A stretch of DNA of 32,000 bases from the NCBI RefSeq assembly GCF_029504745.1, contig NZ_JAQFIQ010000007.1, positions 36,047 through 68,046 on the forward strand, in the 5' to 3' direction. This DNA is from Breznakia sp. PF5-3 (GTDB lineage: Bacteria; Bacillota_I; Bacilli_A; Erysipelotrichales; Erysipelotrichaceae). A program made the translations under genes and the position numbers. Positions 6,160 to 32,000 of this stretch are shown one piece after another. The number at the start of each line of letters is the position of its first letter. Positions within the stretch are counted from its first letter, which is position 1. The notes beneath the pieces are model-generated. The model was given only the letters and a program-made list of their open reading frames with translations, ran no database searches and had not been told where the DNA came from.

Positions 6160-6574
6160 ATGGATGCTTGCACTGTTGTCACTTACATTTATCATCACAG
6201 GTTGTTTTAATTCAAGGAATAGTGAAAAAAGCATGGAGATTGATGCAGAAACGGTTATTGAAAAGACAGTTAACCGAGAGACTTTTTTATTATTGATTGT
6301 GAATGATGATTGTGATCCTTGCGAGGATTTAATGTCGTTGATTAAAGTTCCACTGGCAAAAAACCAAATAACTTTATATAGGCTAAATTACGCTGATGTG
6401 AGTAATGATATGGCAGATCAGTTACAATTGATGTTAACATCATATTCTTCATGGCCAGCACTTGTATATGTGAAGGATGGAGAAGTTTATAGTGGTAGTG
6501 TTTATGAATATTCACTAGATCCAGAAGGGTGGGAAACATGGTTGATCAATCAGGGATTAATTCCACAAAATTAA
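6146..6574 (+). CDS. lipoprotein with thioredoxin-like CxxC motif
   Basis: The likely start is MKHCKWMLALLSLTFIITGC (lipobox), which overlaps the upstream stop. A CDPC motif follows a beta-strand-like LLLIVNDD, as in thioredoxin-fold proteins. Confidence 0.55.
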   Translation: MKHCKWMLALLSLTFIITGCFNSRNSEKSMEIDAETVIEKTVNRETFLLLIVNDDCDPCEDLMSLIKVPLAKNQITLYRLNYADVSNDMADQLQLMLTSYSSWPALVYVKDGEVYSGSVYEYSLDPEGWETWLINQGLIPQN

Positions 6575-8154: not shown

Positions 8155-8180
8155 TTTTTTAATTATTGGAACCTTTTTTG
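8144..8180 (+). terminator. intrinsic terminator overlapping the lepB stop codon
   Basis: gttccaa (8144-8150) / ttggaac (8166-8172), 15-nt loop, then cTTTTTT. Confidence 0.6.
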
Positions 8181-8196
8181 TTTATTTCCGTCAATA
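8168..8196 (+). promoter_or_regulatory. ECF-type promoter candidate A1 (GGAACCTTTT-N-CGTCAATAT) in front of sigma-fusion gene A
   Basis: GGAACC 8168-8173, 15-nt spacer, CGTCAATA 8189-8196. The same bipartite motif recurs at 14749 and 20787. Confidence 0.55.
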
Positions 8197-14748: not shown

Positions 14749-14777
14749 GGAACCTTTTGCGCTGGATTCCGTCGATA
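14749..14777 (+). promoter_or_regulatory. ECF-type promoter candidate A2 (GGAACCTTTT-N-CGTCGATAT) in front of the cohesin-like gene cluster
   Basis: GGAACC 14749-14754, 15-nt spacer, CGTCGATA 14770-14777. It lies downstream of the 14701 terminator and about 55 nt before ATG 14835. Confidence 0.55.
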
Positions 14778-14834: not shown

Positions 14835-16367
14835 ATGAAATTGAAAATAAAGAGTAATAAATTCAAGATCCTGGCAGTTGTAGTTTTGGCTGCTATTGTG
14901 GCAATCCCAAGTATGTTGGCAGCAAAGCCTATGGATACGAAAGCGGATGAAGTAGATGGCGAACCTACTTTTGATATTGCACCAATACATCAGGTAACTA
15001 GAAATGATGGAGGAGGAGCATATGGAACACATGCTCAACAAAGCTATGTAGAAGATGGTGTTCAATATTATCGTAATGGCGATATTATTGAAGTAAGCAT
15101 CATGCTTCCTAAAGGACACGGTGCGACCGTATTCCAAGATGTTGTAAAATATGACGAAGAGAAATTAACATTAATTTCACCTTTCACAGATATTAAAGCA
15201 ACATTATCTAAAAACTATTTAGATAAAAGATGGTCAACAGAAGTGTCAAACCCAAATGCAGATACTTCACGTATTTTAGTATTTGGATCAGCAGCAGATT
15301 TTACAACTGGTGCTGAATACCAAGGTGGTAGTGTTGCTAGAATGTATTTCCGCGTTAATAATAATGTGGAATCTGATGCAGGTACAGCAATTACATTTGA
15401 ATTCCCAGAATTCCAAACCGCTGGATATTCAAATGGAAAAGTTGTATATACACACAGAGGATATGATGCAAATAACGATGCAGCTACTGCATTCTATCAA
15501 GCAGAACCAGTTACAATATATGCAAAAACACCTTCAAAAACAGTAAATGCACCAACCCTTAACTTGAAGAATAGTTCAGCAACTATTTATGAAGGAGATT
15601 TATTTGATCCAGCTTCATACATAAGCAATGCTTCTTGTGAGGTTGATAAATCAGTAAGCAAAGACACTGTTGATATTAGTGAAGGAACTGGAGTTTATAC
15701 AAAACATCAACCAGCAGCTGGAACTTATGTTTATAAATACAGCGTAACAAGTAGTACAGGAAAATCAACAGAGAAACAATTGTCTTTAAAAGTAACAGCA
15801 AGAACATATACAGTTGCTTCTATCGATGTAGATTCTAAAAAAATATCATTGCCTGTTGGAACAGCAAGTTCTGATTTAGAAGCAATGATTAATGAGATGA
15901 AAAAAGAAGACTTTAATGTAACTATTACTTGTAATGATGGTTCTAAATTTGTTGTTCCAGGAAAAGTATTGAATGGAAAAACAGATACTTACCGTATTGA
16001 TGAAAACGATAAGTTATTAGCACAAACATTTAATGTTAACTTTACATTAGCATTGCCACTTGTTTCTTATGGAACAGATGGATCAAGAATTGTAACGCCA
16101 TACAATGGAAGTTCAAGTTTTGTAAGTAATGTTGGAAATGGAAGAGCGGATGCAAAAGTTCCTGTTATTATCGGTACAGGTAATTCAGGAGGAAACAATA
16201 CTGGAGGAAATTCTTCAGGAAAACCATCTACTGCACCTACAGCAGGAAGTAGTAATGGTAGTGGTTCTGCAGCTTCAACAGGGGATACAACAAATGTAAC
16301 ATTCCTTGCAGTATTAGCTATTTTATCAGCAGGATTTATCGTACGTTCAAAATTTAAAAAACAATAA
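14835..16367 (+). CDS. surface protein: signal peptide, cohesin-like domain, Ig-like region, G/S/N-rich linker, C-terminal sorting-signal-like tail
   Basis: The real start is ATG 14835, after aagaggagga. The track's 14706 extension crosses a terminator and a promoter. Signal peptide KILAVVVLAAIVAIPSMLAA. The tail is STGDTTN plus a hydrophobic stretch plus RSKFKKQ. Confidence 0.85.
   Translation: MKLKIKSNKFKILAVVVLAAIVAIPSMLAAKPMDTKADEVDGEPTFDIAPIHQVTRNDGGGAYGTHAQQSYVEDGVQYYRNGDIIEVSIMLPKGHGATVFQDVVKYDEEKLTLISPFTDIKATLSKNYLDKRWSTEVSNPNADTSRILVFGSAADFTTGAEYQGGSVARMYFRVNNNVESDAGTAITFEFPEFQTAGYSNGKVVYTHRGYDANNDAATAFYQAEPVTIYAKTPSKTVNAPTLNLKNSSATIYEGDLFDPASYISNASCEVDKSVSKDTVDISEGTGVYTKHQPAAGTYVYKYSVTSSTGKSTEKQLSLKVTARTYTVASIDVDSKKISLPVGTASSDLEAMINEMKKEDFNVTITCNDGSKFVVPGKVLNGKTDTYRIDENDKLLAQTFNVNFTLALPLVSYGTDGSRIVTPYNGSSSFVSNVGNGRADAKVPVIIGTGNSGGNNTGGNSSGKPSTAPTAGSSNGSGSAASTGDTTNVTFLAVLAILSAGFIVRSKFKKQ
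14961..15531 (+). other. cohesin-like domain, copy 1
   Basis: GDIIEVSIMLP..ATVFQDVVKYDEEKLTLIS..RILVFGSA..GGSVARMYFRV..GTAITFEF, compared with remembered CipA cohesin GDTVNIPVRF..CDFVYSYDPNVLEIIEI..KIIVFLFA..GVFATIVAKV..SVIKFVEV. Confidence 0.6.
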
Positions 16368-16427: not shown

Positions 16428-19400
16428 ATGAAAAAATTCTTTAAATTATTTATCGCTGCATTTATAGCAGTAACATGTATTGTTCCTTTACAAAGTATTT
16501 CAGCGGCTTATGGAGATCCAGTAGAGCCAATTTACCAAATTTCACGTAATGATGGTGGAGGGAAATATGGAACACATAAGAACCCTGATTATAAAGAGGG
16601 AACTACACAATATTACCGTGATGGAGATATTATCGAGGTAGATTTCAGATTACCAGCTGATTCAGGAGTTCAAATTTATAACCAAGTTATTAAATATGAC
16701 TCAGATCAGTTAGATTTATTATCATCAGATACAGATATTACAGGTACTTTATCATCTACTTTCACAAGTAAGAATTGGTCAAGTACAACAGCAAGAGACA
16801 ATAATGACAATGAAAAAATCTTAGTTTATGGGGGAAGTAATAACTTTGGAAACCCTGATACAAAAGATTATACAGGTGGAACGATTGCTAAGGTTTACTT
16901 CAAAGTAAAAAATGGAGTTGAATCAACAGCAGGAACACCAATTACATTTGAATTTATGAATTTTCAAACAGCAGAGTTTAAAAATAACAAAGTTTCTTAT
17001 ACACATATAGGATATGATCCTAACAACGATGCAGGAACGGTATACTATACAGCTCCTTCACAAACCATTCAAGTAAAGAAACCAAGTGTAACATTTAGTG
17101 CTAATGATGGATTTATTACACAAAGCCAAGCAAAAGCATTAAATACAAAGAATGATTTAAAAGCTTATAATGATGTAAGTGCAAAATTAACTGATGGCAC
17201 TAATATTGATGTGACAACAGATGCACAAAACTTCAATGATATTAAAGCTGGAAAAATTGGTTCTTATGATGTGACATATGGATATACACATGATGGAAAT
17301 TCAGATAGTAAAAAAGTAAAATTAAATGTAGTATCTGATGATGCAGTTATCTCACCAGAGAAAAATTTTGCTTTATCAGCAGAACATGCATTTATTACTG
17401 CATCGGATGCGAAAAAGTTAACGAATAAAACACAATTGATTTCACTTAACAATGCAAAAGTAACATTGAAAAATGGTACTAACGCTACACCTAATGTAGA
17501 TGCACCTGCATTTGCTTCTATTCAAGCAGGAAGTGTTGGAACTTACGAAGTTACTTATAGTTATGGAAGTGGGTCTGATACAGCAAGTAAAAAAGTGTTT
17601 GTAACGGTTGTGAAAGATGGTTCGGTGATTTCACCTAACAAAGATTTCTCACTTTATGCAAAACATGGATTTATTAAGAATACAGAAGCTAAAAATTTAA
17701 CAAGTAGAACTCAATTGATTCCATATAACAATGCAGAAGTTACACTTGTAAATGGAGATAAAAGAGATCCTAGACCAACAGTAACAGCTGCTGAATGGTT
17801 ATCAATTACTTCTGGTATTAAAGGAAGTTACAATGTTCTTTATGAATATGGTGATGGAGCAAATGAAACAAGCTTGGTTGTTAAAATAACAGTCATTGAT
17901 GAAAACGATCCAATCTCACCAAACAAAGAAGCAAGTCTATCTGCACAAGATGTTGAGCTTAGTGAAACAGAAGCAAAAGCGCTTACATCAAAGAATGATT
18001 TGATTGCTTTAAATAAAGCGTCTGTTACATTATCTGACGGTTCTGTGGCAACACCAACGATAGCAAGTGTTGATTATGCTAGTATAGTATCGGGTAAAAT
18101 TGGAATTTATCCAATTACATATACATATGGTAGTGGTCAAGGAAAAGTTGATAAGACAGTAAATGTAATCGTTAAAGAAGATAAAAAACATGTAATTACA
18201 TATGAAGATAAGATTATTACTGTTGATCAAGCAAAAGCATTATCTAGTAAAGATGATCTTAGAGTGGTAAACAATGTTCAAGTAACAGCAATTGATGGAT
18301 CACATCCAAATGCAGTTGTTGATGCACCAACATGGAGTTCTATTAAAGATGGTAAATTAGGAACATACACAGTTACTTATAGTTATGGATACGGAGATAA
18401 ATTAGTATCTGTAAATGCAAAAGTTACAATCGTTCCAAATGGTTCAGAAATTGATGATAACGCAAGTTTATATGCGCAAAATGGATTCCTTGAACAATCA
18501 TCTGCAAAAGCACTAGTAACTAGAAATGATTTAATTCCTTATAATGCAGCGTCAGTTACATTATTAAGTGGTGGAACAGCAACGCCAACGGTTGGAATGA
18601 GCGCAGGAGATTGGTACTTATTGTCGGCAGGAGAATTAGGTTCATATGATGTTGTTTATTCATATGCAAGTTTAAGCAAACGTGTTCTTGCAACAGTAAT
18701 TAAAGATGGATCTATCGTTTCTGAAGATAAGACAGCAAGTTTATATGCAGAAAATGCATTTATTGAATCAAGCAATGCTAAGAAATTAGCAAATAAAGAA
18801 GCACTTAGAGCATATAACAAAGCGTCTGTAACATTAATTGATGGTAGAACAGCGAACGCAACAGTAGATGTTGCAGCTGCTGATTGGTTAGCAATCCAAC
18901 AAGGAACAGTTGGAGCATATGACATACTATATACATATGGAAGTGGAGATGGACAAGTTAGCAAGCGTGTAAAAATTGTTGTTATCGATGATGATCCAAT
19001 CATTTCTCAAGATGGGAAAGTTGCATTGAATGCAGTTGATGGTGAAATTGCGGATACGGATGCAAAGAAAGTTACAAGCAAAGAAGACTTGATTCCATAT
19101 AACAGTGCAAAAGTTACATTGGAAGATGGAACTATCGCTAAATTGGATGTAACAATATCTACAAGTAGCTTAAATGCTATTAAAGCAGGTACGTTAGGTA
19201 CTTATACTGTTACATACTCTTATGGAAGTGTTGGAAGCCCAAGTTATGTAAGTAAAACAGTAAAATTAGAAGTTGTAATTAAAACAAGAGCAATTCATAT
19301 GTTTGACTATGATGATAACAAACGTATTGATGTTATTGACTTAGCACATTTCAATAGAATTTATTCTAATTCTATGAATGTTTCTGCATATGATTTAATG

Positions 19401-19523
19401 TTAACTGACTTCAACAAAGATAAACGTGTTGATGTTATTGATTTAACACAGTTTAAATATTACTATTCTAATTCATTGATTCTTCCACCAACAGTGGATG
19501 TACCAGTTGAAATAATTCCATAA
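16428..19523 (+). CDS. secreted protein carrying both a cohesin-like domain and a dockerin-like module, separated by 8 x ~90-aa repeats
   Basis: RBS aggaggg. Signal peptide FIAAFIAVTCIVPLQSISA. Domain evidence is given in the separate entries. Confidence 0.9.
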   Translation: MKKFFKLFIAAFIAVTCIVPLQSISAAYGDPVEPIYQISRNDGGGKYGTHKNPDYKEGTTQYYRDGDIIEVDFRLPADSGVQIYNQVIKYDSDQLDLLSSDTDITGTLSSTFTSKNWSSTTARDNNDNEKILVYGGSNNFGNPDTKDYTGGTIAKVYFKVKNGVESTAGTPITFEFMNFQTAEFKNNKVSYTHIGYDPNNDAGTVYYTAPSQTIQVKKPSVTFSANDGFITQSQAKALNTKNDLKAYNDVSAKLTDGTNIDVTTDAQNFNDIKAGKIGSYDVTYGYTHDGNSDSKKVKLNVVSDDAVISPEKNFALSAEHAFITASDAKKLTNKTQLISLNNAKVTLKNGTNATPNVDAPAFASIQAGSVGTYEVTYSYGSGSDTASKKVFVTVVKDGSVISPNKDFSLYAKHGFIKNTEAKNLTSRTQLIPYNNAEVTLVNGDKRDPRPTVTAAEWLSITSGIKGSYNVLYEYGDGANETSLVVKITVIDENDPISPNKEASLSAQDVELSETEAKALTSKNDLIALNKASVTLSDGSVATPTIASVDYASIVSGKIGIYPITYTYGSGQGKVDKTVNVIVKEDKKHVITYEDKIITVDQAKALSSKDDLRVVNNVQVTAIDGSHPNAVVDAPTWSSIKDGKLGTYTVTYSYGYGDKLVSVNAKVTIVPNGSEIDDNASLYAQNGFLEQSSAKALVTRNDLIPYNAASVTLLSGGTATPTVGMSAGDWYLLSAGELGSYDVVYSYASLSKRVLATVIKDGSIVSEDKTASLYAENAFIESSNAKKLANKEALRAYNKASVTLIDGRTANATVDVAAADWLAIQQGTVGAYDILYTYGSGDGQVSKRVKIVVIDDDPIISQDGKVALNAVDGEIADTDAKKVTSKEDLIPYNSAKVTLEDGTIAKLDVTISTSSLNAIKAGTLGTYTVTYSYGSVGSPSYVSKTVKLEVVIKTRAIHMFDYDDNKRIDVIDLAHFNRIYSNSMNVSAYDLMLTDFNKDKRVDVIDLTQFKYYYSNSLILPPTVDVPVEIIP
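16506..17073 (+). other. cohesin-like domain, copy 2
   Basis: It aligns residue for residue with copy 1: SRNDGGGKYGTH, YYRDGDIIEVDFRLP, IYNQVIKYDSDQLDLLS, KILVYGGS, GGTIAKVYFKV, GTPITFEF, YTHIGYDPNNDA. Confidence 0.6.
17091..19281 (+). repeat. 8 tandem in-frame copies of the same ~90-aa module as in 10887-14380
   Basis: Examples are NDGFITQSQAKALNTKNDLKAYN...GSYDVTYGY and LYAKHGFIKNTEAKNLTSRTQLIPYNNAEV...GSYNVLYEYG. Confidence 0.8.
19302..19469 (+). other. dockerin-like module
   Basis: FDYDDNKRIDVIDLAHFNRIY ... DFNKDKRVDVIDLTQFKYYY. Confidence 0.7.
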
Positions 19524-20786: not shown

Positions 20787-20816
20787 GGAACCTTTTTCGG
20801 ATTATAAGCGTCTCAA
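20787..20816 (+). promoter_or_regulatory. ECF-type promoter candidate A3 (GGAACCTTTT-N-CGTC)
   Basis: GGAACC 20787-20792, 16-nt spacer, CGTCTCAATA from 20809. The spacer is one nt longer than in A1 and A2. Confidence 0.4.
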
Positions 20817-20992: not shown

Positions 20993-21073
20993 ATATCGCT
21001 ATCAACTAATTAAATACGCCTTCCCTGAACAATACATGTATTTAGTTAACCCCGATAGCGATATATTTTTTTT
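20993..21073 (+). terminator. long imperfect hairpin plus T8 abutting the RBS of the next gene (attenuator-like)
   Basis: atatcgctatc (20993-21003) pairs perfectly with gatagcgatat (21054-21064). Further inner pairing is possible (aactaa/ttagtt, taaatac/gtattta). T-run 21066-21073, then GGAGG 21074-21078 and ATG 21085. Confidence 0.5.
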
Positions 21074-21084
21074 GGAGGAATAAA

Positions 21085-21546
21085 ATGAAAAAAATTATAA
21101 TTAGCTCAATTTGCTTTGTTGCATTACTAGCTGGATGTTCTTCTGGTAGCAAGGGAAGTGAAAAAGTTTGTACAATGACACAAGGAGCTAGTGATGAATT
21201 AGAAGAAAAAATTACCATTTCTTATGATGGAGATACAGTAACAACCATTGTTTCAAAGACTACCATTGATGTAGAAAAAACGAAAACAGGTACAACAATG
21301 GAGGATTTAGAAAAGCTTGCAAAAGATGTTGATAAAGTTTATAACGCTATCAAGGGTGTAAAGTATACATATGAAAGCAAAGATAAGAAATTCTATGAAA
21401 CGATAACTGTAGATATCAAGGAAGAGAATATGGAAGAATTACAAAACAAGGGAATGATTAATATGTATGTTGATGAAGATGGAAAAATCTTAAAAGCTGA
21501 CAAATTGATTGATTTCTTGAAAGATTCAGGAATGAAGTGTAAATAA
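21085..21546 (+). CDS. YehR/DUF1307-like lipoprotein
   Basis: Lipobox FVALLAGCSSGS. About 150 aa with ITISYDGDTVTT...IKGVKYTYESKDKKFYETITVD and a C-terminal ...LKDSGMKCK, matching the pattern I recall for DUF1307 lipoproteins. Confidence 0.7.
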   Translation: MKKIIISSICFVALLAGCSSGSKGSEKVCTMTQGASDELEEKITISYDGDTVTTIVSKTTIDVEKTKTGTTMEDLEKLAKDVDKVYNAIKGVKYTYESKDKKFYETITVDIKEENMEELQNKGMINMYVDEDGKILKADKLIDFLKDSGMKCK

Positions 21547-21558
21547 TGAATATAATAC

Positions 21559-21594
21559 AAAGATAGAACAATTTATAGTTTTATCTTTTTTTTT
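21559..21594 (+). terminator. intrinsic terminator after the lipoprotein gene
   Basis: aaagatagaac (21559-21569) / gttttatcttt (21578-21588) with one mismatch, 8-nt loop, then a T-run to 21594. Confidence 0.7.
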
Positions 21595-21665: not shown

Positions 21666-21696
21666 ATGAACCATTTTTATGTTTATTTCAACTAAT
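21666..21696 (+). promoter_or_regulatory. ECF-type promoter candidate B1 (ATGAACC-N16-CAACTAAT) in front of sigma-fusion gene B
   Basis: ATGAACC 21666-21672, 16-nt spacer, CAACTAAT 21689-21696. The identical half-sites and spacing recur at 26872. Confidence 0.5.
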
Positions 21697-21743
21697 TATA
21701 TGATAGGTTATATTTTTGTCATGTATTGAAAGGGGGCGATGCT

Positions 21744-23045
21744 ATGATGAGAAAAGTGGATGTGAAATATGTAGAAGCACTTCAACGCGGTGATTTGGAG
21801 GCTTTTAATGTAATTTACGATTATTATAAGAATTCCATTTATTTTTTTGTACTTAAATTTGTTGGTAATCAACAAGATGTTGAGGAAGTAGTACAAGATA
21901 CGTTTGTCAATGCATATCGAAATATCAATATGTTGAAATCTTTGGATGCTTTTCATTCATGGCTTTTTAGTATTGCTTACAGCCAAGCACAAATGGTATA
22001 TCGAAGAAAATCACATGGTAATCTGATTGATGGGAATCTAGAAGAAATTGCTAAGGTTGAAGATTCACAAAAAAAAGAAATTGAAAATAAAGATATTCTT
22101 GGAGCTGTAGAAGATGAATTGTATAAATTGCCTGCAAAATATTCACAAGTAGGACAATTGAAATACTTTGAAGAACTTTCGGTAAAAGAAATTGCAGAGG
22201 TCTTAAGTATTCCAGTCGGAACGGTTAAAACTAGATTAATGCGAATTAGAAAGATGATATCTCCTGGTTTAGAAAAAAGAGGATATACACCAAAGAAATA
22301 TTTTGGGTTTGCATTTACACCGCTTCTTTACCAAGCCTTTACAGCAATGATTAACAATCATACATTGTCTGCTGAGCAATCAGTGTCAACGTTCAATACG
22401 ATTCAAGAGAAGATTACTACTGGAGGAGGAACGGCCTTGTTGAGTGGTGTTTCTGCGACAGGTGCTATGGCATCTGCAGGTGTTAGTGCAGTAAATAAAG
22501 CAATGATTGGAGCAACTCTTATGGCAAGTGCAGTAGGTGGTGTTGTCATTTATCAAAACTTACATACGGAAGCTGCAGTAATTGAAGATATTGTATATTA
22601 TCAAGATCTAACAAATAAGGATATTGAAGTTGCGGTTCTTTGCAATAAAGAAATTGGTAGTGCGGATATTGATGTGTCGTATAACGAAACACCAGTCGTA
22701 TTTCGTATAGAGGATAATAAGGTATTGTTTGATGCCAAAGATAATGGTGAATATAAGATTAGTTTAAATGATGAAAATCAAGTCCTTACCATTGATAATA
22801 TTGATAAGGAAGTTCCATTGATTCATAATGTGGCATATGATAACGATTTACTAAAAATTGAATTTGATGATGCAAATGCAATAGATTATCAAAAATCATA
22901 TGTAAACTTTAATGAAAAATCATATACAATTTCAAAGCAAGGAACCGTTCATGAAAAATTGGATGGTGAGTTTGAAGTTGTGTTGTATGACTTGGCAGGG
23001 AATAAAGTCGGCTATAAGATAGACTTAAAGACATACAAAAATTAG
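21744..23045 (+). CDS. ECF-type sigma-70 family factor fused to a TM helix and a C-terminal extracytoplasmic domain (paralogue B)
   Basis: Start ATG 21744, after aaaggggg. Region 2: EEVVQDTFVNAY..FHSWLFSIAYSQAQMVYRR. Region 4: LPAKYSQVGQLKYFEELSVKEIAEVLSIPVGTVKTRLMRIRK. TM helix AMIGATLMASAVGGVVIY. The tail is homologous to paralogue A (DLTN, NGxY, IDNIDKxxP, LLKI, IDxxKSYV, LYDxxGN). Confidence 0.85.
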   Translation: MMRKVDVKYVEALQRGDLEAFNVIYDYYKNSIYFFVLKFVGNQQDVEEVVQDTFVNAYRNINMLKSLDAFHSWLFSIAYSQAQMVYRRKSHGNLIDGNLEEIAKVEDSQKKEIENKDILGAVEDELYKLPAKYSQVGQLKYFEELSVKEIAEVLSIPVGTVKTRLMRIRKMISPGLEKRGYTPKKYFGFAFTPLLYQAFTAMINNHTLSAEQSVSTFNTIQEKITTGGGTALLSGVSATGAMASAGVSAVNKAMIGATLMASAVGGVVIYQNLHTEAAVIEDIVYYQDLTNKDIEVAVLCNKEIGSADIDVSYNETPVVFRIEDNKVLFDAKDNGEYKISLNDENQVLTIDNIDKEVPLIHNVAYDNDLLKIEFDDANAIDYQKSYVNFNEKSYTISKQGTVHEKLDGEFEVVLYDLAGNKVGYKIDLKTYKN

Positions 23046-23056
23046 AGGGGTAAAAG

Positions 23057-24226
23057 ATGATAAAAAAGAAGGGCGCAAAAATTAGTTTTTTAATCATGTT
23101 AATAATTGCTTTGTCATTTATTACTTCTTTTTCTGTAAATGCAGACTCGTTTTTTGATTTACATATTTCTATCAAAGCTGAATATCAAGGGGAAGCAATT
23201 CAAAGTCATACCAAGATTCCTTATGGAAGTAATGTTCGAGTGCATATAGATATTTCAAACCAACAGGGGAATCTTACATCTAAAGTTAAATTAATACCGA
23301 AAGAAAGTATGGAATTTCTTTCGTATCAAAACAGTGAAGCCCAAATCAATGGTGTTTTGCTTAGTGCTAATGAATATCAACAATTACTTAATGATGGATA
23401 TTCATTAGCACTGGGAAGTACACCAACAACGATTGCATTGAATGTAAAGTCGACAGGTTCTACAAGAAGTAAAATGTCAGCCGATATCAAAGTTTCTTCG
23501 ACATCTATAAGCAATCGAAACTCTTATGAAATTTTTGAAATGCCAATACATGGAGATTTTAAGAGTAAAGAAACAGGTCCTCAGAATGCTTATCGAATCG
23601 CTTTATATGACGATGCGTTAAGTTTGATTGATGCTTTTGAAGTAACTCATAATGAGGTGTTTACATTACCAACGTTTACTCGTTATGGTTCTACGTTTGT
23701 AGGGTTTAATACAAAGCCAGATGGAACAGGTAAATATTTTATTCGTGGAACCGTTAATAAGGCTACTAATTTTTATGCTGTTTACAGCACAAACAAATAC
23801 AAAGTCACCTATTACATAAATGGAAGTGTATATATGGTAGATTATGTTAATCATGGTGAAGATGCACAAAATATTATTCCTTCCACTAAGGAGAGTGAAG
23901 GGAATAACTTTTTGCGTTGGGAAGGAAATCTAAATGCTGTTGATAGTGATCGTGATGTGTTTGCAGTGTTTGAGAAAAAAGCAACCTTTCGCACTGGGAT
24001 CGATTACTATATGTATATGATGGAACGAGGTTCTGGACGTCATAATGCGGATGGTGGAGATAGTTATAAACCAGATATTAATCTGTTTTTTGATGCCCTT
24101 ATAGGGAAAATGCAAACATCCAATGAGTTTGTGAAGATTCTTTTCAGTACGATTCCTCTAATGTTGATTTTAGGGGGATGGTCTATGTACTTTTATAAAA
24201 AACGTTATGGAAGGAAAATATCATGA
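23057..24226 (+). CDS. surface protein with Listeria-Bacteroides (Flg_new-type) repeats and a C-terminal TM anchor
   Basis: Signal peptide. FTLPTFTRYGSTFVGFNTKPDGTGKYF...NFYAVY and YKVTYYINGS...NNFLRWEG...DVFAVFE fit the repeat consensus (P.r.GytF.GW...dG......lyA.w). C-terminal IPLMLILGGWSMYFY plus KKRYGRK. It starts 12 nt after the sigma gene stop. Confidence 0.75.
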   Translation: MIKKKGAKISFLIMLIIALSFITSFSVNADSFFDLHISIKAEYQGEAIQSHTKIPYGSNVRVHIDISNQQGNLTSKVKLIPKESMEFLSYQNSEAQINGVLLSANEYQQLLNDGYSLALGSTPTTIALNVKSTGSTRSKMSADIKVSSTSISNRNSYEIFEMPIHGDFKSKETGPQNAYRIALYDDALSLIDAFEVTHNEVFTLPTFTRYGSTFVGFNTKPDGTGKYFIRGTVNKATNFYAVYSTNKYKVTYYINGSVYMVDYVNHGEDAQNIIPSTKESEGNNFLRWEGNLNAVDSDRDVFAVFEKKATFRTGIDYYMYMMERGSGRHNADGGDSYKPDINLFFDALIGKMQTSNEFVKILFSTIPLMLILGGWSMYFYKKRYGRKIS

Positions 24227-26847
24227 AAAAATTAGAGGGAAAATGGATTAAAGTAGCGACTATAATTTCAATATGTATGATTGCTATTTTAGTAAAGAGT
24301 ACCTATATGGTATTCAGTGAAAACACAAAATATCTTGATTATGAAGTTATGCGTGATCAAGTAAATCCAATTGCTTATATTGTGTTTGATGTTCATAACG
24401 CTGCAAATGAAATTGAATCGATAAAGGACCCAGAAGGAAATTTATTGGATTTACAAACAGCGCGTTACACAGTTGAGGAAAGTGGTGAATATGTCTTTAC
24501 GATTCGTTATATAGAGGCTAATGAGACAAAGGAAGTCACACAGGCAATTGCAGTGGATATTGTAAAACGTCCACAAGCGCGTGCGCTAGGAAGACAACTT
24601 GTACCAGATGAAAATTTTTATAATTATTTGATTAGCGAAAAAGGATTACCGACAGATTTTACACAAGCAGATCTTGCAAGTGTTGATTATATCGATTATA
24701 TGACATCTGATCCATCCTTACGGATTAATAGCATTCAAGGAATTGAATACATGAGTAATCTTACACATGTTTATTTGAATGACCAAAATCTATCGTCTTT
24801 ACAACCAATGAAAGATACCATTTATCCAAAACTAACAATGTTAGAGTTTAACAATTGGAATACAGGGACAAACGCCATTCATGATTTATCCTTGCTTACC
24901 AAAAGTAGATTTCCACAATTAAAAGGTCAAATTATGTTTAATAATAATGGCATTACAGATGAGCATTTAACAACCTTACCAACAAGTGATGGTATTGAAA
25001 AAGCCCAATTTCATTTTCAAAATAATAATATTTCTAGTTTAGAAATATTTCGTCATTATTCAGACTTAAAAGAGTTGCATGTACAACACAATCAGATTGC
25101 TGATTTAACACCATTATCAACTTTGAGAAATGTGGAAATTCTTCAACTTTCAAATAATCTAATTGTAGATGTTTCCCCTTTGACAACGATTCAAAGTATT
25201 TCGAATGCTTCTTTATATTTAAATAATAATCAGATTGTTGATTTATCACCATTACAATCCTTTACAGGATCTATTTATGCCCAGACATATCATCCATCTA
25301 TTGATCCTTATCATGATCCAGATCAAAATTATGGACAGCAGATTTATTTGAATGAACCAATTTATGGTGACAAGAAGACGAAAACAATTAAAGTGTATGC
25401 AACAGGTAAAAATCGTGATGGAAATGCGATTCCCTTTGAGTGTGAAGGAAATCTAGTTGAAGAGGCAGAGATAACACTTCTTGATTTAGATGATACCTAT
25501 ACATATACATCGTCTTTGATTGAATATGATACAAGGTATCAAAGTGTGACTACGCAACCTATCATATGGTGGGATAATCCAATCATTACAATGGATGCTT
25601 TAGAAATTTTCACTGATACAAATTATGATTTGTTAACGGGTGTAGAAGCGATAGATACCTTAGGTAATAGTTTAACCACAAAAGTATCTATTCACGATAG
25701 GGGGAGCTTTAAAAGCGATGTACCAGGAACTTATGAAGTTCAATATAAAGTGGTAGATGAAAGAAACTATGAAACGATTCAGACACGTATTATCAAAGTA
25801 CATGGTCAACCAATTCTTAAAATGGAAAACCAACGTTTTAATGTTGATGATTTCTCTAATATAAATATAAATCAACATGTAAATGCATATTGGATGCAAG
25901 CACAGGATAGTCCTAATCAAAGTGCTCAAAAAGTAGCAATTGAAGATAAAGACTTAAGCTATGATATTATTTTAGGACCAGATAAGCAATTTCAAAAAGT
26001 AGGGATTTATAAAGTGAAGTTCACAGCAAAAGCTGGAACGGTATCAAAGAGTAAAGAAGTATCCATTTTATTGAGTGATGCATCTAGTGTTCAAGATATC
26101 TTGAGTAGTGTTCTTATTGCTGCTGATAGTATTCAAATAAATTATCAAGATATTAATGCTTTGAATCCTTCACAATTGCTACAAAGAAGTAATGCTAATG
26201 CTTTTAAGATAGATAAAAATACGAGTGATGAAATTTTAGGATTTCGTAACATCAAGCAATCTATAAAGGTTCATGAAAAACAATATGAGCAAATAAAAAA
26301 ATGTGGACCTGAAGGTGGGGTCTATCCACTAATTATCTATGTGAATGCAGATGGAATAGAGGTTAGTAAAGAAATAATGGTGGTGGTATATGGAACCAAT
26401 ACACCAAAAGTAGAAGATGAAAAGCTAGTTATCACGGCAAAAGATTTTTCACTAAGTGAAGCGGATGCGAAAACAATTACAGATGAGCAAGTAAATGAAC
26501 TAGCACAAGCAAAAGCTTTATTACTGACAAATGATGAATTCATCTATGATATTAGATGCAATGAAGAAGAATTAAAAGAAATAAGAAAAGGTAAGGGTGG
26601 CACTTATAATCTTACTTTTACAGCACAGCATTTTGAAGATGAAGAATATGTAAGTGCTACAACCAAAGTGAAAGTAAAAGTGAATGCAAACATTTATGGA
26701 AAATATCAACAAAAAAAGAATATATCTAGTACGCTTGCAAAAGCATCTGTAGCGGCAGGAGATACAACCGATATAAGCCTTTATATGCAGGTATTGGTTG
26801 TGTTTGGTATCTTTGTTTTGCGCAAGTTGAAGAAAAAAATATTTTAA
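24223..26847 (+). CDS. internalin-like leucine-rich-repeat surface protein with Ig-like (DUF5011-type) domain and sorting-signal-like tail
   Basis: ATGA overlap with the upstream stop. LRRs include LKELHVQHNQIADLTPLSTLRNVEILQLSNNLIVDVSPL. The Ig-like segment is DLLTGVEAIDTLGNSLTTKVSI...PGTYEVQYKVVDERN. There is one copy of the ~90-aa module (ITAKDFSLSEADAKTIT...GTYNLTFTA). The tail is AAGDTTD plus a hydrophobic stretch plus RKLKKKIF. Confidence 0.85.
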   Translation: MKKLEGKWIKVATIISICMIAILVKSTYMVFSENTKYLDYEVMRDQVNPIAYIVFDVHNAANEIESIKDPEGNLLDLQTARYTVEESGEYVFTIRYIEANETKEVTQAIAVDIVKRPQARALGRQLVPDENFYNYLISEKGLPTDFTQADLASVDYIDYMTSDPSLRINSIQGIEYMSNLTHVYLNDQNLSSLQPMKDTIYPKLTMLEFNNWNTGTNAIHDLSLLTKSRFPQLKGQIMFNNNGITDEHLTTLPTSDGIEKAQFHFQNNNISSLEIFRHYSDLKELHVQHNQIADLTPLSTLRNVEILQLSNNLIVDVSPLTTIQSISNASLYLNNNQIVDLSPLQSFTGSIYAQTYHPSIDPYHDPDQNYGQQIYLNEPIYGDKKTKTIKVYATGKNRDGNAIPFECEGNLVEEAEITLLDLDDTYTYTSSLIEYDTRYQSVTTQPIIWWDNPIITMDALEIFTDTNYDLLTGVEAIDTLGNSLTTKVSIHDRGSFKSDVPGTYEVQYKVVDERNYETIQTRIIKVHGQPILKMENQRFNVDDFSNININQHVNAYWMQAQDSPNQSAQKVAIEDKDLSYDIILGPDKQFQKVGIYKVKFTAKAGTVSKSKEVSILLSDASSVQDILSSVLIAADSIQINYQDINALNPSQLLQRSNANAFKIDKNTSDEILGFRNIKQSIKVHEKQYEQIKKCGPEGGVYPLIIYVNADGIEVSKEIMVVVYGTNTPKVEDEKLVITAKDFSLSEADAKTITDEQVNELAQAKALLLTNDEFIYDIRCNEEELKEIRKGKGGTYNLTFTAQHFEDEEYVSATTKVKVKVNANIYGKYQQKKNISSTLAKASVAAGDTTDISLYMQVLVVFGIFVLRKLKKKIF

Positions 26848-26871
26848 AAATAATATTTTTTTCGAAATTTC

Positions 26872-26902
26872 ATGAACCAAATTTTTAATGACATCAACTA
26901 AT
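26872..26902 (+). promoter_or_regulatory. ECF-type promoter candidate B2 (ATGAACC-N16-CAACTAAT) in front of the giant adhesin gene
   Basis: ATGAACC 26872-26878, 16-nt spacer, CAACTAAT 26895-26902. It lies about 55 nt before ATG 26956. Confidence 0.5.
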
Positions 26903-26955: not shown

Positions 26956-29900
26956 ATGTCTAAAAACAGTCAAAAATTTAAGTCTAGAATAGAAATGAAA
27001 ATATTTAAAGTATTTTTATCTTTTGTTCTATTTTTCACTTCAATAGGGATCTCATCGCTAGTAGCAGATGTTTTGCTAGTTAGTAATGCAGACGATGTTG
27101 AAGAGGTTGAAAAAGTAGAGGAGGAGGAACAGGTAGAAGAACCATCTGAAGAAGAAGAAACTTCTGAAGAAACACCTCCTGAAGAGGAAGCTGAAGAAGA
27201 GGAAGAAGATCTTCCTGAAAAACAGACATATGATCGTCAGACTCGAGCGGGTCCAGTTGCGATTGTAGGTAGTTGGGCAGAGTTAGTTGCTGCTTTAAAT
27301 GATACAGATGTGTCTGAAATTACCTTTAGCTCAAGTATTAGTAGAGGTACTAGTACAACAAGATTACCAGCAATCTCAAGAGATTTGGTGATTAATGGTA
27401 ATAACAAGACATTGGATTTTGGTACTTCAACAACCGTTGAAGCAAATTACCGTGGTTTCGAGTTAGGAAATGTAACAACAGATCATAAATTGGAAATCAA
27501 AAATCTTAATGTAAATAAGATTGGTAGATCTTATTCAGCAGTTACAAGATATGAAGCATTTGTAAATACTGGTCTTAGTGGTAATTCAAATACTGCAGGT
27601 GATGGTAGTAGTGCAGCCAAGAACAGTATTCACTGGACAGTGCATTTTGATAATGTAAACAACAATGCTGTTGCAGCGCAAAACACTGCATCATCACTTG
27701 CTTCCGTAGAAAATGGAACGATTGTATTATCAGGTAATGTTAACTGGGCTACCAACTATAAAGGTAGATGGGAACAAGACCATGCACGTCGTGCAGGGAT
27801 GGTTATACGTTCTAAAGATGTTCATGTAACAGCATCTCCGAGTGGGACAGCTACAAATGTTAAATTGTATGCAAATAACACATATGGTGCTGCATCAAGT
27901 TATGGATATAATCCAGCACTTGTATTAGTACCAAGTAATGTTTTTGCTAACAGTAGCAGTGGTGGATATACAGCAAGCCTTGTTGTAGATAGTGGATCAA
28001 ACCTATATGCAGAATCACAAGGTAGTTATACACCAGCGGTTGTAATGAATATTATTGAAAAACAATTACAAGCAAATGAAACTTCAACAAATGGTGCTAA
28101 AGTACAAATTACAGGTGGAAGTACAGCAAGTCTTGTAGCCAACCGTAATGGGTATGAAGGTGCTTATGGAGGTACTTTGAGTGTTGCAGGTAGAAATGCA
28201 TCAGCAGGGGACCAATCTAATGGTGAATGGGATACACGTGAAGCTACGATTTCAGTAGATGGTGGATCAACATTAAACCTTGAAGGTAAAAAGACAACGG
28301 CACTTACAGTACAGGTTACTGGAGGTAAAGTAAGAGTTGCTGGGCAAGGATCTAAGTTAAATGTAGATTCTGCTACCGATGTAGAAAACATTGGTACTGG
28401 TGGTGACTTTAATTCAAGTTATGCCAATTCTGATGGTATTTATGCTGCCATTCGTTTCCGTTGGGTAGGAAATCAAATTCTACATGCTACTGATGGTGGT
28501 GTAATTAATGTAAGAAAACATACTGGTAATGCGATGCTAATTCGTTTTGGTAAGGGTGAAAATAACTCTTTCTATGCAACGAATGGTGGACGCGTATATA
28601 TGTGGAACGCTGGGGATGGAACACCACGTGATGCAGCAACAAGTAGAGATTCATACAATGCACCACTACAAGGATATAACAAAGGTGTTGAATATGATGC
28701 AAGTGGTTTCACATTCCAAGTTGAAGGTGAAAAGAGTTCAGTAGAAATCTATGCGGATAATGGGGCAGCGATTGATGCAACAGGACACGCAAACGGAACT
28801 ATTAATATTGGTAAAGGTTCAATTTTTGTTGCCAAAGGACAAACGGGAACAAATAAAGCTGCAATTTTTAAAGCAGGTGCTAATACTACATTTAATATGG
28901 ATGAACCAATTTATTATGATTTTGCTAATACACGTGATCAAAACAACGAAGGTGGAGCAATTTTAGATCTAGGTTCAGGAAGTACATTTGATGCTTCAAA
29001 AGTAGATATGGCAGTTTGGAAAAAAGGAACTCGTCATAATGGAAATGCTACGAATAACTGGCCTTTCTTAAGTTTCTCACTAAGTGGTACAAACTTGATG
29101 AATGTAAATTCAACACGTAGTGATTTCTTAGATAAATATCTAGGTATTTCATCGTATTCACGTATGAATGGTAATAATGCACAAGTTATTATTACAAACC
29201 TAGCAAACTATACACCAGAAAATGCTGATAAATATGTATTCTTTAGTGCAACTGTTCCTGAGGGAATGGACCAAACAGGTCGTGCAGCTATGGATGATGA
29301 AGTATATGTAGAAGTATTAGAAACAAAAGCAGATGGTACAACTCGTACATTACAAGGAGTAAGTGCTACTGATACACGTTATGATGGTGTTAATAAACAA
29401 GGATTGATTAAAGTTGATTTAAAAGGTGAATTTGCACTTCCTGGTACAAAATATGAAGTTATTTCAGCGTATCGTGGAAATCCAAATGAACCAGAACAAC
29501 AAAGACATTCAGAAGCACAATATTTACAAGCAAACCCAATTACAGTAGTTGATACTACACCTCCACTACCTGTAAAATTAGATGGTCTTGTGTATGCAAA
29601 TACAAAAACCGTTACGGGAACTTGGGATATTGATGCAATTCACAACAATGATAAACCAGTGAAATTAACAGTGACATTAAATGGAACACAATTAGCTGGA
29701 GAAGGAACACTTTCAGGTGAAGGTACATCTGGAAATGCAGGAAAATGGAGTTATACATTCCCAAATGGTACAACATTAAAAGAAGGCGATGTATTACAAT
29801 TTTTTGTAGAAGATGCAAAAGGAAACAAAAATCCTGCAGCAACGAAAACATATCATGATACAACACTAAATGAAGGAACGAAAGTAACTGTTACAAAAGT

Positions 29901-32000
29901 TCGTTATGAAGTAATTGCAAGTGATGTTATCGTAGGTAAAGAAGATGCAAAGCTTATCCTTACAGATGCAGATTTGAAGAGTAAAGCAAAAGCTAGCGGA
30001 CGTGATGTTATTGATAGTAAAGCTGCAGATATTATCGTTTTAGAATCAAATTACAAACCTGAACCAGGTACATATAAAGTTACCTTTGCAATTGAAGCAG
30101 AACAAGATGTACAAAAAACAGTAACGTTCAAAGTATTACCATTTGATGAAGTTATTGTATCTGACAACTATGTTTTAGCTGCAAACAATGTATCTACCTA
30201 TACAGGTGAAGCAAAGAAGATTGCAGATAGTACAAGCTATGCAGAATCAAAATTAAAAGAATTATCAGGTGCGAAAGCATGGGCAAAATCAACTGTATTA
30301 TCAGATTCTTTTGATCCAGCAACAACACCAAGTGTTGGTGTATCATTGAGCTCACATACAGTAGTAGGGTCAATCGGACTTTGGGATGCAACGTTTGCAG
30401 TAACAAATGAAACATCAACAAAATTACCAATTGATGTTAGAGTTATCAATGGTAGTGAACCAAAATTAACAGTTGAACCAACTTACATGAATATTCCAGT
30501 AGGTGGAACATATGATTATACATATGGAGTAAGTGCAATTGATGATGAAGATGGTGATCTTACAAGTAAAGTAACATCTACAGGAACTGTAAATGTAAAT
30601 GCAGAAGGTGTATATATTATTGTGTACACAGTTACGGATAAAGATCACAATTCAGTAAGTAAGACAAGAGTTGTAACAGTTGGTGATTATATACCAGGAG
30701 AAAAATATTTCTTTAAGGTTAACAACTTTGTAATCTTGAAAAAAGATGTTAAGGGAACAGATGCAGAAATCCTAGAAAAAACAGGAGCGCAAGCTTGGGT
30801 TATGGAAACAGGACTTCCAGTTCCAACATCTGATTTAGAAGTAAGAAACAACGGTGGTTATAAAGCTGAAGTTGGAGATTACAAAACAACAATTTCAGTG
30901 AAAGGTGCAACTTCTGCAAAAGATAAAGTTGAACCAACTGCAAAAGTAGTAGATGGAAACGTAATCGACGAGGGAGATAAATATACACTTGTTGCTAGCA
31001 ACATCGTAATGACAGTAGATGAAGCTAAAACGATGACAAGTAATGCGAAATTAATTGATAAAGCAGCAGCGAAAGCATTTAAGAAAAAAGATTTAAGTGC
31101 AGGAACTGTAAAAGTAGATGCCAGTGGAACTAACTTCAAAGCTGAAGAAGGTGACTACAAAGCAACATTCTATGTAGGTGAAGAAGAAGCGACAAGAGTA
31201 GAAATTAAAATCAAAGTAATTGATGGAGATATCATTGATCATGGAGATGAATATACAATTGTAGCGAAACATGTACAACTTACAAGAAGTCAAGCAGAAG
31301 CATTAACTGATAATGACTTAATTAGTAGAGCAAAAGCAAAAGCATTCAAACGTGATGATATGAGTGTAGCAACAGTAGCGGTTACACATGATGTAGGATC
31401 AACTGTAGGAACATACTCTGCAACATATCATGTAGTAGAAGAACCAACTACAAAAGTAGATGCAGATGTTAAGGTTATCAATGGTAGTGAACCAAGATTA
31501 ACAGTTGAACCAGCTTACATGAATATTCCAGTAGGTGGAACATATGATTATACATATGGAGTAAGTGCAATCGATGATGAAGATGGTGATCTTACAAGTA
31601 TTGTAAAACCAACAGGAACTGTAAATGTAAATGAAGAGGGAGTATACCCAATCGTTTATACCGTTACAGATAATGATCACAATACCGTAAGCAAAACAAG
31701 AGTTGTAACGGTAGGAGATATTATTCCAGGTGAAGACTACTTATTCAAAGCAAGTAACTATGTAATCTTGAAGAAAGATGTTAAGGGAACAGATGCAGAA
31801 ATCCTAGAAAAAACGGGAGCGCAAGCTTGGGTTAAAGAAACAGGACTTCCAGTTCCAACATCTGATTTAGAAGTAAAAGACAATGGTGGTTATAAAGCTC
31901 AAGTTGGAGATTACAAAACAATTATTTCGGTAAAAGGTGCAACATCGACAAAAGATAAAGTTGAACCAACTGCGAAAGTAGTAGATGGAAATGTAATCGA
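26956..32000 (+). CDS. giant adhesin, 5' part (>1680 codons, open to the window edge): signal peptide, Glu-rich spacer, pectate-lyase-like/beta-helix adhesive region, Ig-like domains, ~344-aa super-repeats
   Basis: This ORF is not in the ORF track because it has no stop in the window. I translated it by hand from ATG 26956 (RBS ggaggg 26943-26948) and met no stop. MSKNSQKFKSRIEMKIFKVFLSFVLFFTSIGISS. EEVEKVEEEEQVEEPSEEEETSEE. VAIVGSWAELVAALNDTDVSEITFSSSI...RDLVINGNNKTLDFG resembles pectate-lyase-like adhesive domains of Gram-positive adhesins. PKLTVEPTYMNIPVGGTYDYTYGVSAIDDEDGDLTSKV...VYTVTDKDHNSVSKTRVVTV is DUF5011/Ig-like. Confidence 0.85.
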   Translation, partial: MSKNSQKFKSRIEMKIFKVFLSFVLFFTSIGISSLVADVLLVSNADDVEEVEKVEEEEQVEEPSEEEETSEETPPEEEAEEEEEDLPEKQTYDRQTRAGPVAIVGSWAELVAALNDTDVSEITFSSSISRGTSTTRLPAISRDLVINGNNKTLDFGTSTTVEANYRGFELGNVTTDHKLEIKNLNVNKIGRSYSAVTRYEAFVNTGLSGNSNTAGDGSSAAKNSIHWTVHFDNVNNNAVAAQNTASSLASVENGTIVLSGNVNWATNYKGRWEQDHARRAGMVIRSKDVHVTASPSGTATNVKLYANNTYGAASSYGYNPALVLVPSNVFANSSSGGYTASLVVDSGSNLYAESQGSYTPAVVMNIIEKQLQANETSTNGAKVQITGGSTASLVANRNGYEGAYGGTLSVAGRNASAGDQSNGEWDTREATISVDGGSTLNLEGKKTTALTVQVTGGKVRVAGQGSKLNVDSATDVENIGTGGDFNSSYANSDGIYAAIRFRWVGNQILHATDGGVINVRKHTGNAMLIRFGKGENNSFYATNGGRVYMWNAGDGTPRDAATSRDSYNAPLQGYNKGVEYDASGFTFQVEGEKSSVEIYADNGAAIDATGHANGTINIGKGSIFVAKGQTGTNKAAIFKAGANTTFNMDEPIYYDFANTRDQNNEGGAILDLGSGSTFDASKVDMAVWKKGTRHNGNATNNWPFLSFSLSGTNLMNVNSTRSDFLDKYLGISSYSRMNGNNAQVIITNLANYTPENADKYVFFSATVPEGMDQTGRAAMDDEVYVEVLETKADGTTRTLQGVSATDTRYDGVNKQGLIKVDLKGEFALPGTKYEVISAYRGNPNEPEQQRHSEAQYLQANPITVVDTTPPLPVKLDGLVYANTKTVTGTWDIDAIHNNDKPVKLTVTLNGTQLAGEGTLSGEGTSGNAGKWSYTFPNGTTLKEGDVLQFFVEDAKGNKNPAATKTYHDTTLNEGTKVTVTKVRYEVIASDVIVGKEDAKLILTDADLKSKAKASGRDVIDSKAADIIVLESNYKPEPGTYKVTFAIEAEQDVQKTVTFKVLPFDEVIVSDNYVLAANNVSTYTGEAKKIADSTSYAESKLKELSGAKAWAKSTVLSDSFDPATTPSVGVSLSSHTVVGSIGLWDATFAVTNETSTKLPIDVRVINGSEPKLTVEPTYMNIPVGGTYDYTYGVSAIDDEDGDLTSKVTSTGTVNVNAEGVYIIVYTVTDKDHNSVSKTRVVTVGDYIPGEKYFFKVNNFVILKKDVKGTDAEILEKTGAQAWVMETGLPVPTSDLEVRNNGGYKAEVGDYKTTISVKGATSAKDKVEPTAKVVDGNVIDEGDKYTLVASNIVMTVDEAKTMTSNAKLIDKAAAKAFKKKDLSAGTVKVDASGTNFKAEEGDYKATFYVGEEEATRVEIKIKVIDGDIIDHGDEYTIVAKHVQLTRSQAEALTDNDLISRAKAKAFKRDDMSVATVAVTHDVGSTVGTYSATYHVVEEPTTKVDADVKVINGSEPRLTVEPAYMNIPVGGTYDYTYGVSAIDDEDGDLTSIVKPTGTVNVNEEGVYPIVYTVTDNDHNTVSKTRVVTVGDIIPGEDYLFKASNYVILKKDVKGTDAEILEKTGAQAWVKETGLPVPTSDLEVKDNGGYKAQVGDYKTIISVKGATSTKDKVEPTAKVVDGNVI
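30434..32000 (+). repeat. near-identical 1032-bp (344-codon) in-frame tandem repeat, at least 1.5 copies before the window ends
   Basis: gttatcaatggtagtgaacca occurs at 30442 and 31474. Long identical runs follow, for example cttacatgaatattccagtaggtggaacatatgattatacatatggagtaagtgcaat. The twin antisense track ORFs 30466..30648 and 31498..31680 are offset by exactly 1032. Confidence 0.85.

Follow-up and report, generated by a model that had tools for sequence, protein, structure and literature searches.

A 32,000-nucleotide (nt) stretch of Breznakia sp. PF5-3 contig NZ_JAQFIQ010000007.1 (the window) carries two copies of a bipartite motif, ATGAACC-N16-CAACTAAT (motif B), one ahead of a gene for an extracytoplasmic function (ECF) sigma factor with a C-terminal extension (sigma B) and one ahead of a gene for a giant surface protein, or adhesin. 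On the sequence comparisons described below, we consider it very likely that both copies are promoters read by RNA polymerase carrying sigma B and that they drive the sigma operon and the giant adhesin gene, respectively. An earlier note on this DNA had read the two copies as -35 and -10 elements for a paralogous ECF sigma factor, and every in silico test available to us supported that reading. The element is of a known kind, an autoregulatory ECF promoter together with the promoter of a nearby target, in an uncharacterized family of membrane-tethered sigma factors and giant adhesins.

Two copies of motif B precede the sigma B and giant adhesin genes

Reading the window confirmed the coordinates that the earlier note had given, the identity of the half-sites and their spacing, and the positions before the sigma B and adhesin genes. 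There are two exact copies in the 32 kb, both on the plus strand and both with a 16-nt spacer (Table 1). Site 1 lies 48 nt from the sigma B start codon and site 2 lies 54 nt from that of the giant adhesin, within the 108-nt gap between the end of the preceding leucine-rich repeat (LRR) gene and the giant open reading frame. Transcription would start at approximately 21702 and 26908. Both sites combine an AAC-containing -35 element with a short, C-rich -10 element at the ~16-17 nt spacing of ECF promoters (TGAACC-N16-CAAC), and site 1 stands directly upstream of an ECF sigma gene and its operon, the position from which ECF sigma factors usually autoregulate (PMC3817407). A scan for sigma-70-type promoters (TTGACA-N16-18-TATAAT) gave no plus-strand match at 21666-21696 or 26872-26902, and Rfam covariance models run over the whole window at gathering thresholds gave no match. 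Hairpins in the 5' leaders downstream of sites 1 and 2 were no better than those of shuffled sequences (z-scores -0.7 and -1.1).

The 15-base gapped pattern had two exact matches in the window versus 0.00 in 100 dinucleotide-preserving shuffles, and allowing up to three mismatches added just two further window matches, both poor, intragenic and within chance expectation. The spacers of the two sites are identical at 8 of 16 positions and the 30-nt flanks at 11 of 30 on each side, which we judged to be about chance for AT-rich DNA. Since spacers and flanks are unrelated, the two sites are not copies of a longer repeat. The earlier note had allowed that the pair might belong to a dispersed repeat unrelated to transcription; we found no similarity past motif B that would mark a dispersed repeat or the end of a mobile element, and no copies in the window beyond these two. 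The scan for additional copies that it had suggested was run over 58 kb, comprising the window and a further 26 kb drawn from two more contigs of this genome, and returned no full copy beyond sites 1 and 2.

Metagenomes contained more than 120 matches to TGAACC-N16-CAACTAAT on unrelated contigs of 23-69% G+C, which we set aside as chance matches that carry no information; no contig had two copies, and none of the matches lay near a homologue of sigma B or of the giant protein.

The paired motif is conserved across relatives

A word-index search returned 12 full-length relatives of the sigma factor, and an exhaustive profile search returned at least 150 full-length cluster representatives at E <1e-51. 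A profile scan of genome contigs yielded five full-length family loci, four of them in Breznakia pachnodae, as well as 75 matches to the sigma domain only, which were not used. Genomic contexts were obtained for 13 relatives, from Breznakia and metagenomes. The four-gene cassette of sigma factor, Flg_new, LRR and giant protein genes recurs in loci L081, L083, L084, L086 and L089; the L211 contig includes the sigma and Flg_new genes and then ends, and L088, L004 and L005 are variants without the LRR gene. The position of the Flg_new gene is kept in the five complete cassettes and in L211.

A motif with the layout xxAACx-N16-NNNCxxAx precedes the sigma gene or its operon in nearly every locus, and in most it appears again before the giant gene, lying in the 100-290 nt gap ahead of that gene in L081, L083, L084, L086, L088 and L089. 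The second motif of L211 precedes the gene that follows the Flg_new gene, and the contig ends just after it. When collected, 22 sites from 12 loci aligned in one register with no information outside the -35 hexamer and -10 octamer, and AAC in the -35 element, C at octamer position 4 and A at octamer position 7 were invariant in all 22. The motif is therefore kept upstream of orthologous and paralogous sigma genes where the surrounding DNA is not. We found no literature joining ECF sigma factors, adhesins and Erysipelotrichia.

Two loci showed individual features. The sigma paralogue at 10001-11283 of L005 (B. pachnodae) is split into open reading frames of 273 and 137 residues with its promoter motif intact, and is either a frameshifted pseudogene or the product of an assembly error. 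In L086 (the P0005 locus), we saw no motif in the short gap immediately ahead of the sigma gene; TGAACC-N16-CGACTAAC at 7222-7251 of L086 precedes a unit of bactofilin, 306-residue protein, S26 peptidase and sigma genes, and the adhesin-side promoter sequence is CATCTTAC.

The -10 triplet varies together within loci and with a sigma specificity residue

The opening triplet of the -10 octamer takes different forms across the loci (CGT, CGA, CAT, CAA, GAA or TAT), and the two sites of one locus tend to share the same triplet. It is CAA at both sites of the window (CAACTAAT twice), CAT in L081 (CATCTAAT twice), CGT in L083 (CGTCTTAC twice), GAA in L089 (sigma-side GAACTAAT, adhesin-side GAACTAAC), TAT in L211 (sigma-side TATCTAAC, adhesin-side TATCTAAT) and CGA in L003 (CGACTAAT twice). 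Overall, the triplet was identical at both sites in 8 of 10 loci versus 2.0 expected by random pairing (permutation p = 9.5e-5). Since the paired sites are non-homologous and their spacers differ although the triplet is the same, the simplest cause is a shared reader that differs by locus, namely the adjacent sigma factor.

The residues that would contact these bases are consistent with this explanation. According to the available text of Todor et al. (bioRxiv 10.1101/2020.06.23.168245), the residue equivalent to Asn84 of RpoE sets specificity at -12/-13, with Asp favoring -13C/-12G, and basic residues at the Lys56 position favor -11T. ECF sigma factors also flip a single -10 base into a pocket (reviewed in PMC8103513), a role that we infer for the C present in 22 of 22 sites. 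Mapping the specificity positions by an ungapped region 2 alignment, we found that the Asn84 and Lys56 equivalents are Asp and Lys in sigma A, a paralogue encoded in the same window, and Met and Asn in sigma B. The Asp and Lys of sigma A predict CGT before the flipped C, which is exactly the sequence of motif A (GGAACC-N15/16-CGTC), found upstream of the sigma A gene, and the Met/Asn pair of sigma B goes with CAA at its own putative promoters. Across the family, -12G accompanied all 11 sigma factors with Ser, Thr, Asp, Glu or Arg at the Asn84-equivalent position (Asp in sigma A and P0007), and -12A was found only with Met, Leu or Lys (sigma B, P0002, P0006 and P0008). This relationship between the Asn84-equivalent residue and the -12 base fits 15 of 16 sigma factors, indicating that promoter and sigma residue co-vary.

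Sigma B is an ECF sigma factor and a candidate membrane sensor

The earlier note had taken gene B to encode a sigma factor, and it proved to be a true ECF member. Sigma B matches Pfam Sigma70_r2 and r4_2, lacks domain 3 and region 1, and passes TIGR02937 (89.9 bits versus a 42.9-bit cut-off), and its closest solved structures are SigW, AlgU and sigmaE, of which SigW ranks nearest by sequence and fold. The transmembrane candidate of sigma B is an uncharged 19-residue window at 254-272 (hydropathy score 1.52), whereas the corresponding helix of sigma A is clear (2.17). In the AlphaFold model, residues 280-431 form a confident all-beta region and the linker is poorly modelled and helical. It includes three helices at 184-226 with a conserved FxPxxxQAF-like segment, for which the model confidence score (pLDDT) is <50. 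No anti-sigma domain (ASD/ZAS) was matched in sigma B by Pfam or NCBIfam.

In the circuit that we propose, site 1 would drive a sigma B-Flg_new-LRR operon, resulting in positive autoregulation, and site 2 would give the long adhesin gene a separate sigma B-dependent start. Sigma domain 4 would bind TGAACC and domain 2 would bind CAACTAAT, with the invariant C of each site flipped at -10 and the preceding CAA providing the specificity at -13 to -11. Sigma domains, membrane segment and immunoglobulin (Ig)-like ectodomain would make sigma B a one-polypeptide sensor, probably held at the membrane and freed or activated by an outside cue, most likely through proteolysis by analogy with the fused sigma factor IutY. 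The CAAC versus CGTC difference at -12/-11, matched by Met versus Asp, would likely keep the B and A circuits apart. Because the gap before site 2 showed nothing resembling a terminator, read-through from site 1 into the giant gene is also possible. At the upstream end, the hairpin and T9 tract after the DUF1307 gene is likely an intrinsic terminator setting the sigma B transcription unit apart.

We also considered whether the sigma ectodomain is homologous to the repeats of its own adhesin, as homotypic sensing would have it, and rejected this idea, as profile matches to the giant, LRR and Flg_new proteins of the window were insignificant. The first Ig-like domain of the ectodomain does match 17-31 tandem repeats in the giant proteins P0097, P0144, P0165 and P0185 of other organisms.

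Alternative readings of the two sites

Several observations weigh against the conclusion that sigma B reads both sites. The search pattern used to gather the relatives' sites had AAC and C..A built in, leaving only the triplet and flanks free to inform, and the permutation p value overstates independence since the loci are related; we counted approximately five independent co-changes. Two loci are unmatched (L086, CGAC/CATC; L004, CGTC/TATC), one sigma factor breaks the Asn84-equivalent rule (that of L001, with Leu and CGAC), and the Lys56-equivalent residue follows no clean rule with the -11 base across the family. The genome scan covered 58 kb, and the extent of the regulon is described within those limits. 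In addition, first-order Markov simulations produced ~13 identical 7-N16-8 pairs per 32 kb of like composition, so any such pair is common. For this last reason, chance coincidence in AT-rich intergenic DNA has to be weighed, and motif B owes its significance to its C-rich content, to its location in two intergenic gaps within a single cassette and, most of all, to the comparison with relatives. A second copy of the C-containing 15-mer is expected ~1e-4 times (an estimate from base frequencies), the shuffles had none, and the recurrence of paired equivalent sites in relatives effectively refutes chance, leaving it a negligible probability. It is nearly as improbable that the motif, instead of being a promoter, binds some other regulatory protein, whether repressor or activator, or belongs to a dispersed repeat. 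The octamer CAACTAAT does occur alone at 8148, 20043 and 21003, the last within the hairpin stem of a large inverted repeat, but none of these extra copies is accompanied by a -35 half, and the total is compatible with chance (5 observed versus 2.3 expected). The half-sites are neither palindromic nor direct repeats, the unrelated spacers and flanks and the absence of a third copy from the 26 kb on two other contigs speak against a repeat, the AAC-N16-C geometry and the distance to the start codon fit ECF promoters, and co-variation with a sigma specificity residue is not expected for another regulator.

The alternative that deserves the most weight, which we nevertheless regard as unlikely, is that the sites are ECF promoters that are shared, with sigma A or another paralogue reading them as well in cross-talk or a cascade. 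The -35 halves of motifs A and B are nearly equal (GGAACC versus TGAACC), B. subtilis ECF sigma factors overlap widely at CGTC promoters (PMC5758882), and one copy of motif A precedes the DUF1307 gene next to the sigma B cassette. Furthermore, the B. pachnodae paralogues of L001 and L003 have near-identical promoters, with CGACTAAT in both, which also counts against our conclusion and indicates that insulation is not general in this sigma family. Set against sharing in the window, however, the positions at which the -10 elements of A and B diverge are precisely -12 and -11, and sigma A and sigma B differ at the equivalents of Asn84 (Asp versus Met) and Lys56 (Lys versus Asn). ECF promoters are described as very sensitive to single-base changes in the available text of Todor et al. 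(bioRxiv 10.1101/2020.06.23.168245), and the predicted terminator lies between the DUF1307 and sigma B genes. If every site were open to every paralogue, the co-variation within loci would also be difficult to account for. What the sequences show directly is the presence of the motif, its conservation and co-variation, and the identity of the sigma factor; sigma B-dependent transcription from both sites, insulation from sigma A and the mode of activation are inferred.

Motif A and the possible insulation of parallel modules

Motif A occurs at 8168, 14749 and 20787, compared with 0.05 copies expected in the window. Since the copy at 20787 precedes the bordering DUF1307 gene, the A regulon would reach the edge of the B cassette. 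The earlier note had described motif B as a second, distinct motif with a similar -35 half and a different -10 half. The two halves compare as it said, but their distinctness was overstated: motif B departs from the family consensus by two bases (CGTC to CAAC), and the intermediates CGAC and CATC exist in relatives. The spacer of the sigma A promoter (TTTTTTGTTTATTTC, 8168-8192) is also much like that of site 1 (ATTTTTATGTTTATTT, 21667-21692), which suggests a joint duplication of sigma gene and promoter that gave rise to A and B, with the -10 element diverging later.

A prediction of two parallel regulons had likewise been made. There does appear to be more than one module, but the number two does not hold, as the genome has at least four such cassettes, those of sigma A, sigma B, P0004 and P0012, with the promoter sequences GGAACC-N15/16-CGTC, TGAACC-N16-CAAC, TGAACY-N16-CGTCWTAC and WAAACS-N16-CGTC, respectively. 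In B. subtilis, changing two bases of the -10 element moves a promoter from sigma X (CGAC) to sigma W (CGTA) control or back (PMC5758882); given this precedent and the stringency of ECF promoters, insulation of A from B is plausible. We propose only tentatively, as something that may well not hold, that these loci form a family of self-contained sensor-and-adhesin modules, each with a membrane-tethered, Ig-like-ectodomain ECF sigma factor that drives its own giant adhesin and several to a genome, made mutually orthogonal by paired changes in the promoter (-13 to -11) and the Asn84-equivalent residue. If true, one cell would have independent switches for different adhesins, and the family would offer a ready-made natural set of orthogonal sigma factors and promoters, including the rare -12A class.

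Genes of the cassettes and other features of the window

The features discussed are listed in Table 1. Within the cassette, the Flg_new gene starts 11 nt after sigma B. The window is the final 32 kb of its contig, and the giant protein is cut by the contig end; that of the paralogous P0004 cassette (L084) has 4841 residues.

Table 1. Positions of the predicted promoter elements, genes and hairpin in the window.
Feature	Position	Strand	Remarks
Site 1 -35 element, (A)TGAACC	21666..21672	+	Predicted sigma B autoregulatory promoter; sequence read
Site 1 -10 element, CAACTAAT	21689..21696	+	C21692 is the predicted flipped-out -10 base
Site 2 -35 element, (A)TGAACC	26872..26878	+	Predicted sigma B-dependent promoter of the giant adhesin gene
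Site 2 -10 element, CAACTAAT	26895..26902	+	C26898 is the predicted flipped base
Sigma B gene, 433 residues	21744..23045	+	ECF domains 2 and 4, linker, probable transmembrane segment ~254-272, two Ig-like beta domains ~280-431
Flg_new (Listeria-Bacteroides repeat) protein gene, 389 residues	23057..24226	+	Cassette gene 2; signal peptide and C-terminal membrane anchor
LRR_4 and Bact_surface_Ig-like surface protein gene, 874 residues	24223..26847	+	Cassette gene 3; 4-nt overlap with the Flg_new gene
Giant surface protein gene	26956..32000	+	Pectate_lyase_5 adhesive domain and Bact_surface_Ig-like repeats; cut by contig end
Hairpin and T9 after the DUF1307 gene	21559..21594	+	-12.4 kcal/mol, z-score -3.2
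Sigma A gene, 441 residues	8222..9547	+	Paralogue of the same architecture, 28% identity to sigma B, full length
Motif A (GGAACC-N15-CGTC) before sigma A	8168..8192	+	Paralogous promoter for comparison
Motif A copy before the 510-residue surface protein gene	14749..14773	+	NCBI gene start 14835
Motif A copy (N16) before the DUF1307 lipoprotein gene	20787..20812	+	~270 nt upstream of the gene, which borders the sigma B cassette

A further hairpin at 20993-21085 has an outer stem of ATATCGCTATC/GATAGCGATAT and an inner stem of AACTAATTAAATAC/GTATTTAGTT followed by T8 (-21.6 kcal/mol, z-score -3.4), with the ribosome-binding site and ATG of the DUF1307 gene directly after it. It had no Rfam match; its position, with the motif A promoter (20787) on one side and the DUF1307 gene on the other, suggests an attenuator or leader terminator.

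The LRR surface proteins and the 510-residue protein of the sigma A cluster share a common C-terminal end consisting of [A/T]-G-D, approximately six residues, a hydrophobic helix and a basic tail. Such endings, for example SVAAGDTTD... and AASTGDTTN..., are encoded at 26700-26847 and 16220-16367 of the window and in L081, L083, L084, L086 and L003. From its sequence, this ending looks like a C-terminal sorting signal, though it is not LPXTG. Dockerin-like C-terminal segments were observed in the 1678-residue (GDGRIDVIDLAHFKRHY, 14500-14645) and 1031-residue (NKDKRVDVIDLTQFKYYY, 19400-19523) proteins of the sigma A cluster, and a neighbor of the P0005 locus has a Pfam Dockerin_1 domain, which hints at a cohesin-dockerin-type assembly in these Erysipelotrichales.

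A Peptidase_S26 (type I signal peptidase) gene lies directly upstream of sigma A (7594-8154) and of the P0005 sigma gene (9335-9955 of L086). Signal peptidase makes the site-1 cut of the anti-sigma factor RsiV in B. subtilis, and by analogy the S26 peptidase could be the releasing protease for the tethered sigma factors, or it could merely process adhesins. Its presence is the one hint of activation through regulated proteolysis. Just upstream of the adhesin island is a gene of the aminoglycoside 3-N-acetyltransferase family (Pfam Antibiotic_NAT, 6529-7350).

Significance and comparison with known systems

The proposed arrangement, in which a sensor-sigma factor would control itself and an adhesin, provides a concrete control circuit for a giant adhesin locus in Breznakia, an insect-gut genus without genetics. 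The family also forms a compact natural series in which the triplets CGT, CGA, CAT, CAA, GAA and TAT can be set against Asp, Ser, Thr, Glu or Arg and against Met/Leu or Lys. This series independently supports the published ECF specificity code and adds Met/Leu with -12A, a pairing not covered in the available text of that work. The presence of at least four parallel modules in one genome raises the question of how surface proteins are chosen.

The closest likeness is to the autoregulatory promoters of B. subtilis ECF sigma factors (sigW, TGAAAC-N16-CGTA; sigX, CGAC; sigM and sigV, CGTC), which have the same AAC-containing -35 element, a 16-17 nt spacer that is often T-rich beside the -35 element, a -10 element of the C-G/A-T/A-C type and a position directly upstream of the sigma gene, and in which one or two -10 bases tell paralogues apart (PMC5758882). 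In contrast, the -10 elements named in that paper all start with CG, and here we find CAAC, with -12A. In addition, sigma B is fused to its own membrane and ectodomain part rather than paired with a separate anti-sigma factor, and the known targets here are adjacent adhesin genes instead of a dispersed envelope-stress regulon.

At the positions of CAA, the -10 element of E. coli sigmaE reads GTC. Region 2 of sigma B resembles that of sigmaE (PDB 4lup and 2map), with TM-scores of 0.84-0.86 (target-normalized) at ~31-32% identity. The -10 cytosine that sigmaE requires and flips (PMC8103513) corresponds to the cytosine that is invariant in the 22 family sites. The two differ in the residues contacting -12/-11, which in sigma B are Met (Asn84 equivalent) and Asn (Lys56 equivalent).

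Sigma B also resembles fused sigma/anti-sigma factors, including P. putida IutY (ECF243) and the actinobacterial ECF48/52/53 (for example SCO4117), in having an N-terminal ECF sigma factor, a membrane span and an extracytoplasmic C-terminal domain. Such fused factors are expected to be activated by proteolytic release (PMC8999054). It differs from them in lacking a recognizable anti-sigma or zinc-finger domain, in having an Ig-like pair as its ectodomain and in its host, a member of the Bacillota (Erysipelotrichales). None of the extension-bearing ECF groups in the available main text of the 2021 classification (PMC7826278) matches the architecture of sigma B.

More distant parallels concern the organization of the modules. 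SigmaI modules have an outward-facing sensor domain, are autoregulated and control genes for very large extracellular or surface proteins. Cellulolytic clostridia likewise have several paralogous sigmaI-RsgI alternative sigma modules per genome, according to the available text of PMC10575876; this is an analogy only, since sigmaI belongs to another sigma-70 subgroup with other promoter elements and its RsgI sensor is a separate protein. Finally, the local-regulator class of ECF sigma factors (bioRxiv 10.1101/2020.06.23.168245) likewise has few promoters within a few kb and possibly moves as a unit; in the available text this class is a statistical category that does not describe the sigma B family or its cassette.

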